From positions 533,646 through 597,645 of the forward strand of contig JANXDH010000004.1 of assembly GCA_025059745.1 (NCBI GenBank): a DNA stretch of 64,000 nt, in the 5' to 3' direction. A program made the position numbers and the translations under genes. The notes beneath the pieces are model-generated. The model did not search any database. It saw only the letters and a list, made by a program, of their open reading frames with translations, and was not told the DNA's origin. Below are positions 1,274 to 56,384 of the stretch, one piece after another; the first letter of the stretch is position 1; each line of letters opens with the position of its first letter. Source of the stretch: Aigarchaeota archaeon. GTDB taxonomy: Archaea > Thermoproteota > Nitrososphaeria_A > Caldarchaeales > Calditenuaceae.

Positions 1274-3442
1274 CTATGATATGTAGACCATGCTCTTCTT
1301 GAACTCCTTCATTATCTTCTCGTACTCCCTCCTCATCTCATCGGTTATGCTGGGTTTGACCTTCTCTAGGGCCGTCAAGAAGTGCCGCGCGGAGACCCTC
1401 GAGACGTCTATGTTCTCCCTCGCGGCCGTCAATGCAGCCTCCCTACAGACGGACTCTATGTCGGCGCCCGTGTAACCCTCCGTGAGGCGTGCCAAGTCCT
1501 CTAAACTCACATCGCTCTCCAGGGGCATCGCAGCCGTGTGTATCTTGAATATCTGTAACCTGGCCTCGTAGTCCGGCGGGGGCACGAATATGACCCTGTC
1601 AAACCTCCCGGGCCTCAGCAACGCTGGGTCGAGTATGTCCGGCCTGTTCGTCGCTCCCATGACGACCACTCCCCTGAGGGTCTGTATGCCGTCCATCTCG
1701 GTGAGGAGCTGGTTGACTATCCTGTCTGTGACGCCCGCGTCGCTGTGGGTACCTCTGCGTGGCGCGATCGAGTCCAGTTCATCGAAGAATATTATGCATG
1801 GCGCAGTCTCCCTGGCCTTCCTGAATATTTCGCGGACCGCCTTCTCAGACTCTCCCACCCACTTGCTGAGGACCTCGGGGCCCTTAACGCTGATGAAGTT
1901 AGCCTGACTCTCGGTGGCGACTGCCTTAGCGAGCAACGTCTTCCCAACGCCCGGCGGTCCGTACAACAGGATGCCTCGCGGCGGCCTTATTCCCAACCTC
2001 TTGAAGACGTGTGGGTATCTCATCGGCCACTCTACTGTCTCCTTCAACTGCTGCTTCACGTCCTCCAACCCGCCGATCATATCCCATTTGACGTTCGGTA
2101 TCTCTAAGATCACCTCCCTCAGTGCTGATGGCTGTACCGACTTGAGCGCCTCCGCGAAGTCCTCCCTCGTGACCTTCAGCTGCTCTAAAACGTCAGCCGG
2201 TATCACCTCTTTCTCGAGATCGATCTTAGGCAGGAACCTCCGTAGTGCGTTCATGGCGGCCTCCCTGCAGAGTGCGGCTATATCGGCGCCCGTGAAACCG
2301 TGGGTGATATCAGATAGCTCATCTAGGTTAACGTCTTTGTCAAGCGGCATCCTCCGTGTATGTATCTGCAGGATCTCCTTCCTGCCGTTCTTATCAGGCA
2401 CCCCCACCCTGATCTCCCTATCGAACCTCCCCGGTCTCCTAAGGGCGGGATCTATGGCCTCGATCCTGTTGGTTGCACCGATCACGACCACCTGGCCGCG
2501 GGACTTCAATCCATCCATCAGCGTTAGCAGCTGAGAGACCACGCGCCTCTCCACCTCACCCGTGACCTCGCCACGCTTCGGTGCGATCGCGTCAAGCTCA
2601 TCGATGAATATTATGCTAGGCGCCTTCTGTTCAGCCTCTTGGAAGACCTCCCTCAACCTAGCCTCGCTCTCACCGTAAAACTTACTCATTATCTCGGGGC
2701 CGTTTATAGTTATGAAGTATGCTCCGGTCTCGTTCGCGAGGGCCTTCGCGATGAGCGTCTTCCCGGTTCCGGGCGGCCCGTAGAGGATGACCCCCTTTGG
2801 AGGCTCAATCCCTAAATGCCTGAAGAGCTCTGGGTGCTTCATCGGTAGTTCGACCATCTCCCTAATCTTCTGAAGCTCCTCATGGAGGCCACCTATGTCC
2901 TCATAGGTGATGCCCATGACCTCTTCCGCGCGCTTCACCGGAGTCGAGCTGACCTCTATATTCGTGTTTTCAGTTATGATCACCATGTTCGCCGGAGAGG
3001 TCGAGATGACCTTCAGTTCAACACCCATCCCCAGTATCGGTATGATTACCACGTCACCTTTCGCCAAAGGGACGTTCAAGAGTTGACTCTTCACTATCCT
3101 GCTGAAATCGCCCACGAACGGAAGTTGCTCGAATGGCGCCATCACTACCTTGGTTGCGTTCTTTATGACGGCCTTCGTGATGGTGATGTAGTCGCCTACG
3201 TTTGCACCCGCGTTCCTCCTGATCTCGCTATCGATGCGAATCATGCCGAGTCCATCGTCCTCCTTGTATGGAGGCCACGCTATGGCCACCGTGCTCCGTT
3301 TGCCCACTATCTCTATCGCGTCTCCCGCAGTGAGCCCGAGCTCCTTATATGCGACACTATCGACCCGTGCGACCCTTCTCCCAACATCACGCTGTTTGGC
3401 CTCTGCTACGCGTAACTGAAACGTCTTTTTATCGTCCAACAT
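1274..3442 (-). CDS. cdc48: CDC48/VCP-like AAA+ ATPase (two AAA domains)
   Basis: 722 aa. Two Walker A motifs ([26 protein letters not shown]), two Walker B ([16 protein letters not shown]), and an N-terminal double-psi barrel region. Confidence 0.95.
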
Positions 3443-51629: not shown

Positions 51630-54260
51630 TTACTCCGGTTGGTGGGGCCTGTGCCTCAAGTAGATCAAGGTCATCAAGGCCGCCACGATAGATATTAAGA
51701 GGACGCTGTACGGCCCGAGGGGGACAGTACGCCTCTGTGGTGAGGTCGTTGGGTCTATTGAGGATTCGCTCCTCAAACCCCCGAAGGTGATTGTCAAGGA
51801 CTTACCGTAGGGCGAGACTGGACCGAGACGGACGACACCGTCCCAGCTCGTTACACCCTCTGACTCTACGAACCCGTCCTCTCTGCTTACGGTCACAGAG
51901 AGCATGGGGGCGGGGAGATGGAACAGGTCCTTCAGAGTGAACTCTATGTAGTAGAGCCTCACCCCCACCCTTACCTCCCCCGAAGCCGCATCGACCGATC
52001 TCTGGTCCGTGACGTCGGCCCCTCTCCATATCGACCTCTGGACAGTCCATCTGCCTTCCCTCAACCATATTATACTCCCAGAATGATGAGATACGAATTC
52101 CCCGCCAGGTCCTATGAGTTCAAAGGTCACCGAACCCGAGGTGCCTGTGCGCGGCTCCTCGATAAGCAGGGACAGGACCTCCTTGACGTAACGAGCGGTT
52201 AGCGATAACGGGCGCGTGACCACCGCTGAGACGTTCACGAGCTCTGTGATCAGGTCACCGCTCCAGTGCCTGAAGGAGAGACGCTCCCGATCGCTCAAGT
52301 AGATGAACTCCGGCGCACTGAACGACACCTCTGAGCCCTGAGTGACCCAGAACCTCTGGGACTTTAGGGGTTCGGGATAGTTTATCGATATTAGGTGCTC
52401 TAGGGTCCAGATTGCTCGTACCCTCATCGGTCTATCCACTCTCACCTCGACCACCCTCTCGACAGAGGTGACGTCACCCTCCCACTTCTTGAAGATCGCC
52501 CGAGTAGAGTCCGATAGGTAACTGATCTGATCGGCAGAGACGATGGCCCTTGACCCCATGAGGTACCATCCCTCACCGCTGACTGATCCGACGCCGGATA
52601 TTAGGTCGAGGTAGTACTCCACGTCGTACCTCGCGATAGCGGTGATGGGCCTGACGACCCTGACCTCCAAGACCGTAGACCTGAGGTTGAGGCCACCCTC
52701 CCAAGACCTGAATACGGCTCTGGTCATGTTATCCCACTCAATATATCGAGGGTACTCGATCGTCAGCGTATCTCCCCTATCGATCCAGACGGTTTTATTG
52801 AGGTTGCCGTGAGTCGACCAGAGGGAGACTAGGTACTGCGTCGTCCACTCGGCGTACAGTCTCTTCGGCCCGTCGATCAACAGTCGCACCCTCGGTCCTT
52901 TCATCGCGTAATCTCCGGTGAATCCCGAGAGCTGGATCCTGGTCATGTTCATAAGGTCCACCGTAGACGGTTCTACCCACACCTCGGCTACTCCCCCCTC
53001 ATCGTACCAACCAGCACCGCGGGTGCTGCCATGTGCGGTGAATACGTCAACCTTGAATTGCCTCACCCACGTCGCGGTGACCTCGACAGGCCCTCTGACG
53101 ACGATCCTCAGTGTGTTTATCGTGGAGCCGAATGTACCGACCCACCTATCGAACCTTAACCTAGAGACCTCGCTTATCGGGACTACGCTGGGAACCTCTA
53201 AGTCTATAATGCTCTCCCTATCGAACCAATCAGTTAAGTCCCTCGTGAAGGTCCCGGCCACCCTAACCAGATATTGGGTCCTATAGTCTTGAACGACCTC
53301 CATGTGGTATCTCGGTCTGATTACTATCTCAGGAGAACTCGAGACGGCCCTTCCACCGATCGACCATCCGATGAACCTCATCCTAGTTGAACTATCGACA
53401 CCTACGATCTCATCACTCCTAAGAGTGATGGACTGACCAGGCTCGACGAGGAGTACTTCTAAAGGTATGAGGCCACTACCATCCACCCTGCGATAGATCT
53501 TGACGGAGAGCTTGATCGGGTACCCCTGTACGTCGAGCAGATAGAACATCGGTATCTCGGCTGGCAGGGTGACCCTCGACGGTACGTTCTCAAAGACGTT
53601 CGTAGCCATCCAGCGGTAAGCTACGGCCAGTGAATAGAGCTCAAGCGTGGACGGCCTGCTACCAGGGACCACGTACCTACACATTATGCTCCTGCAGTTC
53701 GTGGTGTGACCTATGCCGAGCGCGTGGGCGAATTCGTGGGCCGCCACCACCTTCGTGATCTCCTCATCGCCCCTCGTACACGACAACGAGATAGCTATGG
53801 ACGCGTTCACTATCTCCGTCCCCGCCCTGAAGATGTAGGCGACACCGCAGATACCCGAGCCCAACGTCTCAACGTACCTCATCCTGATGTCTCCCGAAGA
53901 ACCGTTAACGCCGTAGATCAGCACGTTGATCTTGAGCTCCTCCAAGTAGTTGTAACCGAAGAGAGCGGTGAATATCGGTATGGCGGTGATCCACCACCTC
54001 ACGCCCTCCGCCGCCCAGACCGTGTAAGCGTGTTCCTGGTGGGGATAGATGAGAACGTTCAGTTCCCTCTTCCTCCAAGAGCCCAGCAGATCTATCACGC
54101 CATCCTCTTGTCTCTGTTCGGTGAGGTTCGCGGGAGGACTCTCGTAGGTGATCGCGTGTGAGGACGATTGAAAGTCGTGGCCACCGTCAACAGGATGAAG
54201 AATAAGTATCACGAAAACAATTAAAATGAGCGTGATCGGTACCGCTCTCAAACACCTCAA
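51630..54260 (-). CDS. secreted, C-terminally membrane-anchored metzincin-type zinc metalloprotease with ~6 tandem beta-repeat domains
   Basis: N-terminal signal peptide, HEFAHALGIGH (HExxHxxGxxH), then ~65-aa repeats each with F-x2-W-x-G ... GxGWY motifs (InlB B-repeat-like). C-terminal TM helix PLGPYSVLLISIVAALMTLIYL. 876 aa. Confidence 0.65.
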   Translation of the reverse strand: MRCLRAVPITLILIVFVILILHPVDGGHDFQSSSHAITYESPPANLTEQRQEDGVIDLLGSWRKRELNVLIYPHQEHAYTVWAAEGVRWWITAIPIFTALFGYNYLEELKINVLIYGVNGSSGDIRMRYVETLGSGICGVAYIFRAGTEIVNASIAISLSCTRGDEEITKVVAAHEFAHALGIGHTTNCRSIMCRYVVPGSRPSTLELYSLAVAYRWMATNVFENVPSRVTLPAEIPMFYLLDVQGYPIKLSVKIYRRVDGSGLIPLEVLLVEPGQSITLRSDEIVGVDSSTRMRFIGWSIGGRAVSSSPEIVIRPRYHMEVVQDYRTQYLVRVAGTFTRDLTDWFDRESIIDLEVPSVVPISEVSRLRFDRWVGTFGSTINTLRIVVRGPVEVTATWVRQFKVDVFTAHGSTRGAGWYDEGGVAEVWVEPSTVDLMNMTRIQLSGFTGDYAMKGPRVRLLIDGPKRLYAEWTTQYLVSLWSTHGNLNKTVWIDRGDTLTIEYPRYIEWDNMTRAVFRSWEGGLNLRSTVLEVRVVRPITAIARYDVEYYLDLISGVGSVSGEGWYLMGSRAIVSADQISYLSDSTRAIFKKWEGDVTSVERVVEVRVDRPMRVRAIWTLEHLISINYPEPLKSQRFWVTQGSEVSFSAPEFIYLSDRERLSFRHWSGDLITELVNVSAVVTRPLSLTARYVKEVLSLLIEEPRTGTSGSVTFELIGPGGEFVSHHSGSIIWLREGRWTVQRSIWRGADVTDQRSVDAASGEVRVGVRLYYIEFTLKDLFHLPAPMLSVTVSREDGFVESEGVTSWDGVVRLGPVSPYGKSLTITFGGLRSESSIDPTTSPQRRTVPLGPYSVLLISIVAALMTLIYLRHRPHQPE

Positions 54261-54313
54261 CCTATAGTTGAAGGGATTTAAGGTTTATGACGTAGGTACG
54301 GGATCTCAGTTAC

Positions 54314-55327
54314 GTGGACGCACCAAAGCTCGCGGTCTATGCGAGCCACTCGGCTCTACAGATAATCACCGGTGGAAGGAGAGAGGGGCTAAACGTCACG
54401 CTCTTTGGACCGGCGGAGAGGCTGACTTTCTATCGGAGGTTTAGGGCCCTGCAAATGAGTACGCTGGAGTGCACCAACGAGGACTGCATAGAGAAGTTAA
54501 ACTCTCTGAGTGACCACGTGGTCGTTCCAAACGGTAGTCTGGTGGAGTACGTCGGTGCAAAGAACGTCCTAGAGTTGAAGACGCCCCTCATCGGCTCGAA
54601 GGGTCTCTTGTGGATCGAGAGCCGCTGGAACCGGAAGATGAACCTCCTGATGGACGCCGGTCTACCGGTCCCCAAGTGGTTCTCGAGACCCGAGGAGGTA
54701 GACAGGTTGGTCATAGTGAAGTTGCCTGGCGCGAAGGGCGGGCGGGGATACATACTGACGGACTCACCCGGAGAGATAAACGAGTCCCTGAGGGAGTACG
54801 TGAGAAAGGGTATCATAAGCGACGCATCGGAGGCCTACATACAGGAGTACGTCGTCGGTATCCCGGTCTACGCCCACTACTTCATGAGTCCCATAATGAA
54901 CAGATTAGAGATAACGGGATTCGATGTGAGATACGAGACGAACGTCGACGGCCTCAGGCGTCTGAGCCACAGGAGAGCCGCTGAGATCAAACCTAGCTTC
55001 GTCGTAGGGGGCAACTTTCCGGTATATTTACGTGAGAGCCTCATAGAAACGTACATAGAGTGCGGTGAGAGGTTCGTCGAGGCCACCGGAAGGTATCTGG
55101 GGAAACCCGTCGTGGGCCCGTTCTGCCTCGAGTCCGTGGTGACCGAGGACCTGACGCCGGTCTTCTTCGAGTTCTCAGGGAGGATAGTCGCAGGTACCAA
55201 CGTATACATGGACGGGAGTCCTTACCTCGAGTTTTACTGGGGTGAGAGGATGAACGTGGGCCAGAGGATCGCGAGGGAGGTGAGGCTCGCGGCAGAACAG
55301 GGTCGCATCGATGAGGTGGTGACCTGA
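54314..55327 (+). CDS. purP: 5-formaminoimidazole-4-carboxamide ribonucleotide (FAICAR) synthetase PurP (ATP-grasp)
   Basis: Colinear with archaeal PurP: YASHSALQI, VVPNGSLVEYVG, GSKGLLWIESRW, KLPGAKGGRGY, YETNVDGL, YLRESL, VGPFCLE, AGTNVYMDGSPY, GQRIAREV. 337 aa. Confidence 0.85.
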   Translation: MDAPKLAVYASHSALQIITGGRREGLNVTLFGPAERLTFYRRFRALQMSTLECTNEDCIEKLNSLSDHVVVPNGSLVEYVGAKNVLELKTPLIGSKGLLWIESRWNRKMNLLMDAGLPVPKWFSRPEEVDRLVIVKLPGAKGGRGYILTDSPGEINESLREYVRKGIISDASEAYIQEYVVGIPVYAHYFMSPIMNRLEITGFDVRYETNVDGLRRLSHRRAAEIKPSFVVGGNFPVYLRESLIETYIECGERFVEATGRYLGKPVVGPFCLESVVTEDLTPVFFEFSGRIVAGTNVYMDGSPYLEFYWGERMNVGQRIAREVRLAAEQGRIDEVVT

Positions 55328-55454
55328 TCTGAGGACCATATCCATCTCATGCATCGCGAGCCACTCTGCCCTCGACGTATTCGATGGGGCGAAGGACGAG
55401 GGTTTCCGGACAATTGCGCTCTGCCAGGTCGGGAGGTCCAAGGTCTACCAGACA

Positions 55455-56384
55455 GTGAGAGAGACGGTGGACGAGTGTCTTGTATTACCGAATTACGCGA
55501 AGATCATCGAGGACGAGGTCCAGGCCGAGCTGTTGGGGAAGGACGCGGTGATAGTGCCCAATCGCAGCATGGCCGTCTATGTAGGATACGACAGGATAGA
55601 GGAGAGGCTTAGGGTCCCTGTATTCGGTAACAAGAAGATGCTGAGGTGGGAGGAGCGAGTCGGCGGGAAGAACTACTACGCGCTGCTCGACTCCGCAGGC
55701 ATTCGAAGGCCGAGGGTGATGAGGATCGAGGAGGTCGACGGTCCAGTGATATTGAAGGTCCAGGAGGCCATGAGGGAGCAGGAGAGGGCCTTCATAATAG
55801 CCTCTGACAGAGAGGACCTAGAGCGTAAGATAGAGTCTATGAGGTCTAGGAACCTCATCAGCGAGGAGACGCTGAGACGCTCGGTCATCGAGGAGCTCGT
55901 ACTTGGTGCACACTTCAACATAAATTACTTCTACAGCGTCGTCAGAAGGAGGTTGGAGATAGTAAGCATAGACCGGCGCATACAGTCTAACTTGGACGGA
56001 CTCCTCCACCTTCCAGCGAGGGATCAGCTCGACCTCCGGGCACCCGTCCGCATGATCGAGGTTGGTCACGTCCCCGTCAGCCTCAGGGAGAGCCTCTTGG
56101 AGGAGGCGATGGAGATCGGTGAGAGGTTTGTGGATGCCACACGCAGATTAGAACCGCCCGGCATAATAGGTCCCTTCACCCTACAGGTGATGGTGTCGCC
56201 CGATCTGAAGATGATCGTCTATGACGTCGCGACTAGGATAGGCGGTGGTACCAACGCGCAGATGGGGATAGGCGGACAGTACTCTAAGCTCTTCCTTAGA
56301 AAGGCGGTCTCTATGGGCCGTAGGATATGTATTGAGTTGAGGGAGGCTCTAGAGTCGAGCGCTTTGACCTCTGTTACAAGTTAA
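55455..56384 (+). CDS. purP: PurP paralog (FAICAR synthetase family); annotated from the first in-frame canonical start, which truncates the conserved N-terminus (possible frameshift/pseudogene)
   Basis: Same motif set as the upstream paralog (VVPNRSMAVYVG, GNKKMLRWEER, YESNLDGL, SLRESL, IGPFTLQ, GGTNAQMGIGGQY). Conserved IASHSALDVFDGAKDEGF is encoded in-frame upstream (55341-55454) without an ATG/GTG/TTG. Confidence 0.6.
   Translation: MRETVDECLVLPNYAKIIEDEVQAELLGKDAVIVPNRSMAVYVGYDRIEERLRVPVFGNKKMLRWEERVGGKNYYALLDSAGIRRPRVMRIEEVDGPVILKVQEAMREQERAFIIASDREDLERKIESMRSRNLISEETLRRSVIEELVLGAHFNINYFYSVVRRRLEIVSIDRRIQSNLDGLLHLPARDQLDLRAPVRMIEVGHVPVSLRESLLEEAMEIGERFVDATRRLEPPGIIGPFTLQVMVSPDLKMIVYDVATRIGGGTNAQMGIGGQYSKLFLRKAVSMGRRICIELREALESSALTSVTS

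Follow-up and report, generated by a model that had tools for sequence, protein, structure and literature searches.

The 64,000-nucleotide stretch of DNA analysed here (the window) covers positions 533,646 to 597,645 of contig JANXDH010000004.1 of an Aigarchaeota archaeon (assembly GCA_025059745.1). On its minus strand, at 51630..54260 with the stop codon included, it carries an open reading frame (ORF) of 876 amino acids (aa) from a TTG start, whose product combines a matrixin-like metzincin domain, as judged from the predicted fold, with six tandem B-repeats, two further β-sandwich domains and a C-terminal hydrophobic helix. This is the largest ORF of the window and it is divergent from a pair of purP genes, both as stated in a first-pass annotation made from the letters of this DNA; the runner-up, at 1274-3442 (-), has 722 aa and an ATG start. 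No other ORF of the window has the repeat or the protease domain. NCBI holds an identical protein of 873 aa, which begins at a second, in-frame TTG and is named 'MAG: matrixin family metalloprotease [Aigarchaeota archaeon]'; its contig, which matches the window, is JAVQTN010000001.1 of assembly GCA_033581295.1.

The catalytic domain spans aa 56-245 (53526..54095, -), as delimited by Pfam, profile searches and an AF2 model compared with Foldseek. Its zinc motif HEFAHALGIGH, an HExxHxxGxxH sequence with an intact Glu, lies at aa 175-185 and is followed by Met-193 of the Met-turn (HEFAHALGIGHTTNCRSIM; aa 175-193, 53682..53738, -), as identified by motif scan and alignment. The Pfam Matrixin model (PF00413) matches the whole protein with 25.5 bits and the isolated domain with 28.0 bits, which passes the cut-off of 24, and the relatives P0035, P0052 and P0059 are matched end to end, over profile positions 2-158 of 159, with 36-41 bits. 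Residues H175, E176, H179, G182, H185 and M193 are invariant in five full-length orthologs with 27-41% identity. Across 30 family members H175 is present in 100%, and E176, H179 and H185 in 97% each, while M193 is invariant (30/30) and is found seven residues past H185 in most. The residue after the third zinc His is Thr in the query, and Ser, Thr or Ala across the family. A profile of the ortholog catalytic region, searched against the PDB, retrieved karilysin as the best match (E 4.4e-7), followed by the matrix metalloproteinases (MMPs) MMP-20, MMP-9, MMP-11 and MMP-14, and also gave a weak colinear match at the first strand. NCBIfam returned nothing above cut-off for the whole protein; its model for a myxosortase-dependent metalloprotease was rejected as a candidate, with 10.6 bits against a cut-off of 250. 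In a separate relative, P0045 (343 aa), the sequence H-A-F-G-L-A-L-G-L-G-E replaces HExxHxxGxxH, with the Met-turn and the C-terminal helix kept, and this protein is an apparent pseudo-protease.

The AF2 model of the catalytic domain, calculated with 30 family sequences, has a predicted local distance difference test score (pLDDT) of 95.7 and a predicted TM-score (pTM) of 0.92. When this model was compared with the PDB by Foldseek, the top 50 matches were all MMP catalytic domains or the bacterial karilysin of Tannerella forsythia, with a probability of 1.0, E ~1e-6, TM-scores of 0.55-0.67 on target length and identities of 14-22%. A non-zincin HExxH protein, tried as an alternative, is excluded by this match of the predicted fold to MMP catalytic domains. 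On the modelled fold the N-terminal domain is a divergent matrixin-like metzincin, and the metzincin of the first-pass annotation is borne out by the Pfam, profile and fold matches alike. The alignment of the 30 members also revealed two pairs of co-varying cysteines: 19 members have both C138 and C161 (~53776-53849, -), 11 have neither and none has just one of them, and C189 and C194 (~53679-53696, -), one on each side of the Met-turn, occur as a pair in the query and P0002 alone. Because these cysteines co-vary pairwise, they are likely to form disulfides, which would take the place of the metal sites that have a structural role in classical MMPs.

The query shares with the known matrixins (MEROPS M10A/PF00413; vertebrate MMPs and karilysin) the HExxHxxGxxH motif followed by Ser/Thr, the Met-turn seven residues further on, and a colinear domain of ~190 aa that opens with a W-x-K-x-x-L strand; its family also has the ...D-L-M-Y consensus of the MMPs. 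In contrast, classical MMPs have a PRCGxPD cysteine-switch prodomain, whereas in the query the first Cys is at aa 138 and the domain is preceded by a mere ~30 residues. The segment in question (aa 27-55, 54096..54182, -), a poorly conserved linker or short propeptide where the model begins with low pLDDT, provides no cysteine switch because it contains no Cys. Classical MMPs also have a structural zinc site, made up of three His and one Asp of the S-loop, as well as calcium sites, and the corresponding His and Asp set is not conserved in the query family; because only H175, H179 and H185 are conserved as His, the structural-zinc site appears to be absent. The query is also unlike MMPs in its co-varying Cys138-Cys161 pair and its lack of a hemopexin domain, its family has its own P-S-T-L-D-x-Y-A-L-A-x-A-Y-x-W helix, and the resemblance to MMPs is limited to the low identity given above, with TM-scores of ~0.5-0.65.

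C-terminal to the catalytic domain, six repeat units follow each other over aa 251-690 (nt 52191-53510, -), and not over aa 290-760 as first annotated, with a period of ~73 aa in place of the ~65 aa then proposed. All lie on the minus strand. Unit 1 (aa 251-325, 53286..53510) is degenerate (RFIGWS), with a strand pattern as in the other units. Unit 2 (aa 326-397, 53070..53285) has FDRWVG, unit 3 (aa 398-471, 52848..53069) has GAGWY, LSGFTG and an NMT sequon, and unit 4 (aa 472-544, 52629..52847) has FRSWEG and an NMT sequon. Unit 5 (aa 545-617, 52410..52628), with GEGWY and FKKWEG, is the highest-scoring one, and unit 6 (aa 618-690, 52191..52409) has FRHWSG. The F-x2-W-x-G motif, which had been thought to open each unit, is exact in four of them (aa 370, 517, 590 and 663) and is replaced in the others by the RFIGWS and LSGFTG variants, while GxGWY, which each unit had been said to contain, is exact in only two (aa 415 and 562).

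To score these units we used a hidden Markov model (HMM) made from eight units of P0006, P0010 and P0011, which are proteins without a matrixin domain. It matches the query six times in register, at aa 285-312 (partial, 8.5 bits), 326-396 (25 bits), 398-470 (38 bits), 472-541 (23 bits), 545-616 (52 bits) and 618-689 (22 bits); the match to the degenerate first unit is only partial, and those to the other five have E-values of 1e-8 to 1e-18. The best single match in 300 shuffles of aa 230-760 reached 4 bits, which excludes chance repeats and upholds the count of about six tandem β-repeats made in the first pass. A BLASTP self-comparison of the protein showed the identity diagonal only. A model of the stalk (aa 242-876, 635 residues, 14 sequences), with a pLDDT of 89.6 and a pTM of 0.43, is all-β, and its strands follow one another in one and the same order in all six units, the degenerate first included. 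Neighbouring units are bridged by an uninterrupted strand of ~16 residues and, because these strands cross the unit boundaries, the model suggests that the stalk is a stiff rod.

The repeats had been described as InlB B-repeat-like, and the evidence for this is transitive. Taken as whole proteins, the orthologs P0003 (27.5 bits) and P0004 (32.9 bits) pass the PF18998 (Flg_new_2) cut-off of 23.6, and P0006, P0010 and P0011 pass it too; five of the eight units from these last three match PF18998 individually. An hhalign comparison of the unit profile of the protease family (A5) with that of the PF18998-positive units (A6) gave a probability of 99.5% and E 3.9e-22 over 72 of 73 columns. From these profile comparisons the repeats are identified as divergent InlB-B-repeat (PF18998) domains, through a link that is transitive but solid. 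According to the account of Ebbes et al. 2011 given in PMC9723798, the InlB B-repeat fold is β-grasp-like; in the whole-stalk Foldseek search, tandem ubiquitin (β-grasp fold) was found with a probability of 0.5-0.9, poorly superposed.

Like the stalk repeats of PF18998 and Flg_new (PF09479) in bacterial and archaeal surface proteins, the query units are tandem all-β units of ~70-73 aa with the signature G-x-G-W-Y ... R-x-x-F-x-G-W-x-G-D ... P, with a functional head on one side and an anchor in the membrane or wall on the other. Repeats of the Flg_new type are recognised stalk domains of surface proteins, with one bacterial example carrying an enzyme head (PMC9210967). The query family differs from them in that the unit number is fixed and not variable, half of the units have a conserved sequon, and the units are too divergent for an individual Pfam match (0/49 units from ten family members, E<=0.01); its host lineage is also one of thermophilic Thermoproteota and not of gut-associated organisms. 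The N-x-S/T sequon occupies one fixed column (A5 columns 44-46), before the R-L-x-F-x-G-W strand, in 25 of these 49 units, against an expectation of ~0.4% per position. This distribution suggests that the ancestral stalk had one glycan per repeat; of the six query units, only two keep the sequon (NMT at aa 438 and 511).

Between the repeats and the membrane, aa 691-848 had been assigned to repeats or stalk, and two more β-sandwich domains, ~150 aa in all, had been overlooked. The first (aa 691-770, 51951..52190, -) is a non-repeat all-β domain with no family match, and NCBIfam found nothing on aa 691-834. The second (aa 771-848, 51717..51950, -) is a membrane-proximal β-sandwich, for which the equivalent segments of orthologs gave sub-threshold CarboxypepD_reg and Big_1 matches. 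It holds the conserved V-P-L-G-x-Y strand, and the Thr/Pro-rich stalk of the first-pass annotation reduces, in the stalk model, to a Ser/Thr/Pro loop of only ~12 residues (SESSIDPTTSPQ) inside this last domain.

The N-terminus of the protein (aa 1-26, 54183..54260, -) has the features of a Sec-type signal peptide, with a basic n-region (R2, R5) and a 17-residue hydrophobic core followed by PVDG|G, and the same hydropathy pattern is observed in the orthologs. The signal peptide first annotated holds as far as the hydrophobic, signal-like segment (aa ~5-26) is concerned, and cleavage of this segment is probable. At the other end, both hydropathy and the stalk model place a hydrophobic, transmembrane helix at aa 849-869 (51654..51716, -), where a membrane anchor had been expected, and it is followed by a short basic tail (RHRPHQPE region; aa 870-876, 51630..51653 with the stop, -), predicted to be cytoplasmic. 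The helix and the basic residues after it are found in the query and in most orthologs.

To delineate the family, we searched the ortholog catalytic profile against 1.84 billion cluster representatives, which gave 1378 catalytic-domain relatives at E<=1e-3, of which 136 also pass E<=1e-10. The architecture of ~860 aa is common to about twenty cluster representatives. In these orthologs, which come from metagenome-assembled genomes of Caldarchaeales and have 23-41% identity, the unit count hardly departs from six, of which five are strong and one is degenerate; one family member of 787 aa has five units. There is thus next to no variation in repeat number, for which the first-pass annotation had proposed a search. 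The catalytic family also has members of ~750 aa, among them P0027, P0032 and P0148 with PF18998 repeats, and many more of 250-310 aa, which consist only of a signal peptide, the catalytic domain and a C-terminal helix. Among the matches listed for species-representative genomes, full-domain relatives occur in Candidatus Caldarchaeum, Thermofilaceae and Bathyarchaeia, and elsewhere there are active-site matches only.

The repeats are also found on other proteins. P0010 (metagenome contig) has an M6 immune-inhibitor-A peptidase, CARDB, B-repeats and a C-terminal transmembrane helix, and P0011 (metagenome contig) has a caspase-like C14 domain, B-repeats and a C-terminal transmembrane helix; their repeats match the query repeat region with E 1e-12 to 1e-25. 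Both resemble the query in repeat type, in the C-terminal transmembrane anchor and in the protease at the distal N-terminal end, and differ from it in having unrelated catalytic classes. Because one repeat type carries M10, M6 and C14 proteases, the B-repeat stalk would be a scaffold of general use for the display of proteases from three unrelated classes. The closest repeat-only relatives, P0006-P0009 (metagenome contigs), have a signal peptide, 3-4 B-repeats, a transmembrane helix and a cytoplasmic zinc ribbon with a helix-turn-helix-like domain, and look like one-component transmembrane regulators with a B-repeat ectodomain.

Regarding the genomic setting, the two in-frame TTG starts of the protease gene are 9 bases apart (54260 and 54251), and the mature protein is identical with either. 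An A/T-rich CTTAAAT box is found ~25 nucleotides upstream of the two TTGs (54251-54290, -) and, because of this element, the shorter start, possibly leaderless, is at least as plausible as the longer one. The divergent purP gene starts only 53 nucleotides away; the protease transcript may be leaderless, and the promoter region may be common to both genes. A sigma-70 promoter and terminator scan gave nothing above shuffle expectation, the sigma-70 model not being applicable to archaea. The purP pair consists of two tandem PurP-type genes (Pfam DUF1246 + DUF1297) at 54314-56384 (+), with starts at 54314 and 55455; the mechanical ORF list gives 337 and 309 aa, and the contig's own gene call for the second gives 348 aa. 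Downstream, a block of rpS2, enolase and RNA polymerase subunit N is convergent with the protease gene. The neighbours of this gene are wholly different in three genomes, with rpS2/enolase/purP here, RNA polymerase subunits in L001 and chorismate synthase in L002. No synteny, conserved neighbour or operon partner was found across these three genomes and, because of this lack of conserved neighbours, the protease gene appears to act alone.

In its overall layout the query resembles the membrane-type MMPs (MT1-MMP/MMP-14), which also have a signal peptide, a matrixin domain, an extracellular spacer, a single C-terminal transmembrane helix and a short cytoplasmic tail, and MMP-14 itself is found among both the sequence and the fold matches. 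In contrast, the membrane-type MMPs have a spacer of hinge and hemopexin domain and a furin-activated prodomain, whereas the query spacer is made of six B-repeats and two β-sandwiches. We infer that the common layout is analogous and was not inherited as a unit. The matrixin family and the stalk-repeat family are already known and the NCBI name is correct, so that we describe an uncharacterised protease and not a new kind of system. What goes beyond the database annotation is the six-unit stalk of fixed length, the two extra domains, the absent structural-metal and prodomain features of MMPs, the co-varying cysteines and the conserved repeat sequon.

With this architecture, the protein is likely to be a type-I membrane-anchored extracellular endopeptidase on a B-repeat stalk, probably cleaving extracellular protein for peptide uptake. 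The protease would be exported by the Sec system, the signal peptide being probably removed, and the C-terminal helix would anchor it in the cytoplasmic membrane, with the short basic tail inside in agreement with the positive-inside rule. Outside the cell, the two β-sandwiches and the six B-repeat domains would form a stiff, probably N-glycosylated stalk, with the single-zinc matrixin-like head at its membrane-distal end. The zinc would be held by the three His of HExxHxxGxxH, with Glu-176 as the general base and the Met-193 turn beneath as a hydrophobic base, and a Cys138-Cys161 disulfide would stabilise the catalytic domain. Extracellular proteins at or beyond the envelope would then be cleaved to peptides, for uptake by a heterotrophic thermophile. 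According to published descriptions, the Caldarchaeales are heterotrophs that live on peptides and amino acids and have oligopeptide transporters (PMC10547907, PMC12979851), with occasional putative extracellular peptidases (PMC10547907).

Several observations weigh against this reading. The cultivated relative Calditenuis is reported to be almost without extracellular proteases (PMC12979851), so that extracellular proteolysis is not common to the group as a whole. Both the activity and the localisation of the protease are predictions from sequence and models. As regards the catalytic domain, the Matrixin match of the query spans only ~30 residues around the active site (profile positions 109-137), and the TM-scores to MMPs are moderate when normalised to query length (0.45-0.53), with a root-mean-square deviation (rmsd) of ~4 Å. 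As regards the stalk, its rigidity and length are taken from the model with a pTM of 0.43. Neither the whole query protein nor any of its six units matched PF18998, and the units matched no Pfam family; searches of PDB sequences with the profiles of the units (A5 and A6) retrieved no solved structure, all matches being at chance level (E > 0.5). The whole-stalk Foldseek search was uninformative, as it retrieved multi-domain pilins and adhesin stalks at an rmsd of 13-60 Å.

A protease of the same architecture could instead act on the envelope of the cell that makes it and shed or mature surface proteins such as those of the S-layer or the pilins, the fixed stalk setting the height of the active site at an envelope substrate. 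This role is possible, if unlikely. The six repeats are strictly kept across divergent orthologs, a constancy more in keeping with a ruler than with a feeding enzyme under loose constraint, and there is one protease copy per genome neighbourhood, always among housekeeping genes. Animal membrane-type MMPs, which have an analogous layout, act as sheddases and activators. However, no conserved partner or substrate gene adjoins the protease gene, the present data give no support to the assignment of such a substrate, and members with the same catalytic domain and a short stalk or none are common, which argues against one fixed envelope target.

That the protein is primarily an adhesin, whose B-repeats or terminal domains bind a surface, a polymer or a cell and whose protease is accessory, seems very improbable to us. 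In gut methanogens and bacteria, Flg_new-family repeats have been read as adhesin-like (PMC9723798, PMC9210967), and the repeat-region relatives P0006-P0009 are without a protease domain; in fibrillar adhesins, however, repeats of this type are classed as stalk domains and not as the binding part (PMC9210967). Moreover, the best-conserved part of the query is the distal catalytic domain, with a mean column identity of 64% against 43% for the stalk and with every catalytic residue intact, and the occurrence of one stalk type with M10, M6 and C14 proteases points to a generic display scaffold. A last possibility concerns the anchor: the C-terminal helix would belong to a tripartite sorting signal that an archaeosortase-like enzyme removes, after which the protease would be linked to a lipid or set free. 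In most orthologs a conserved [VLI]-P-[LVMF]-[GST]-x-Y motif does stand directly before the helix, with Arg/Lys after it (aa 844-869, 51654-51731, -, in the query), a layout that resembles the PGF-CTERM and PEP-CTERM signals (Haft et al. 2012, as cited in PMC9723798). We nevertheless consider such processing scarcely probable, as the NCBIfam sorting-signal models (PGF-CTERM, PEF-CTERM and similar) gave no match to the tails of the query and of two orthologs (P0002 and P0013), even at E 10. In addition, P0024 and P0025 have ~70 more cytoplasmic residues past the helix, which is atypical for a cleaved signal, and in the structure model the motif is the last strand of the last domain.

A broader proposal, which we put forward only tentatively and regard as rather unlikely, is that a sizeable clade of minimal, single-zinc, disulfide-braced matrixins is native to the Thermoproteota (Caldarchaeales, Thermofilaceae and Bathyarchaeia) and anchored by a C-terminal helix, with a rigid stalk of exactly six B-repeats and two β-sandwiches in the Caldarchaeales acting as a ruler that keeps the active site at a set height, level with the S-layer or above it. 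If this were true, the MMP-type catalytic domain and the membrane-type layout would go far back among prokaryotes, and would not be due only to recent transfers from animals, and stalk length would be a determinant of where archaeal surface proteolysis happens.

The practical value of the endopeptidase proposed here is modest and current understanding is not overturned by it. A compact matrixin without structural-metal sites, from a presumably thermophilic lineage, may be of interest to enzymologists. In archaea, several classes of protease would be displayed on a stalk of fixed length made of divergent InlB-type B-repeats, which current Pfam annotation misses in the query. That some Caldarchaeales may encode a surface-displayed endopeptidase bears on whether these heterotrophs of hot springs degrade protein themselves or depend on their neighbours for it, as suggested for Calditenuis (PMC12979851).

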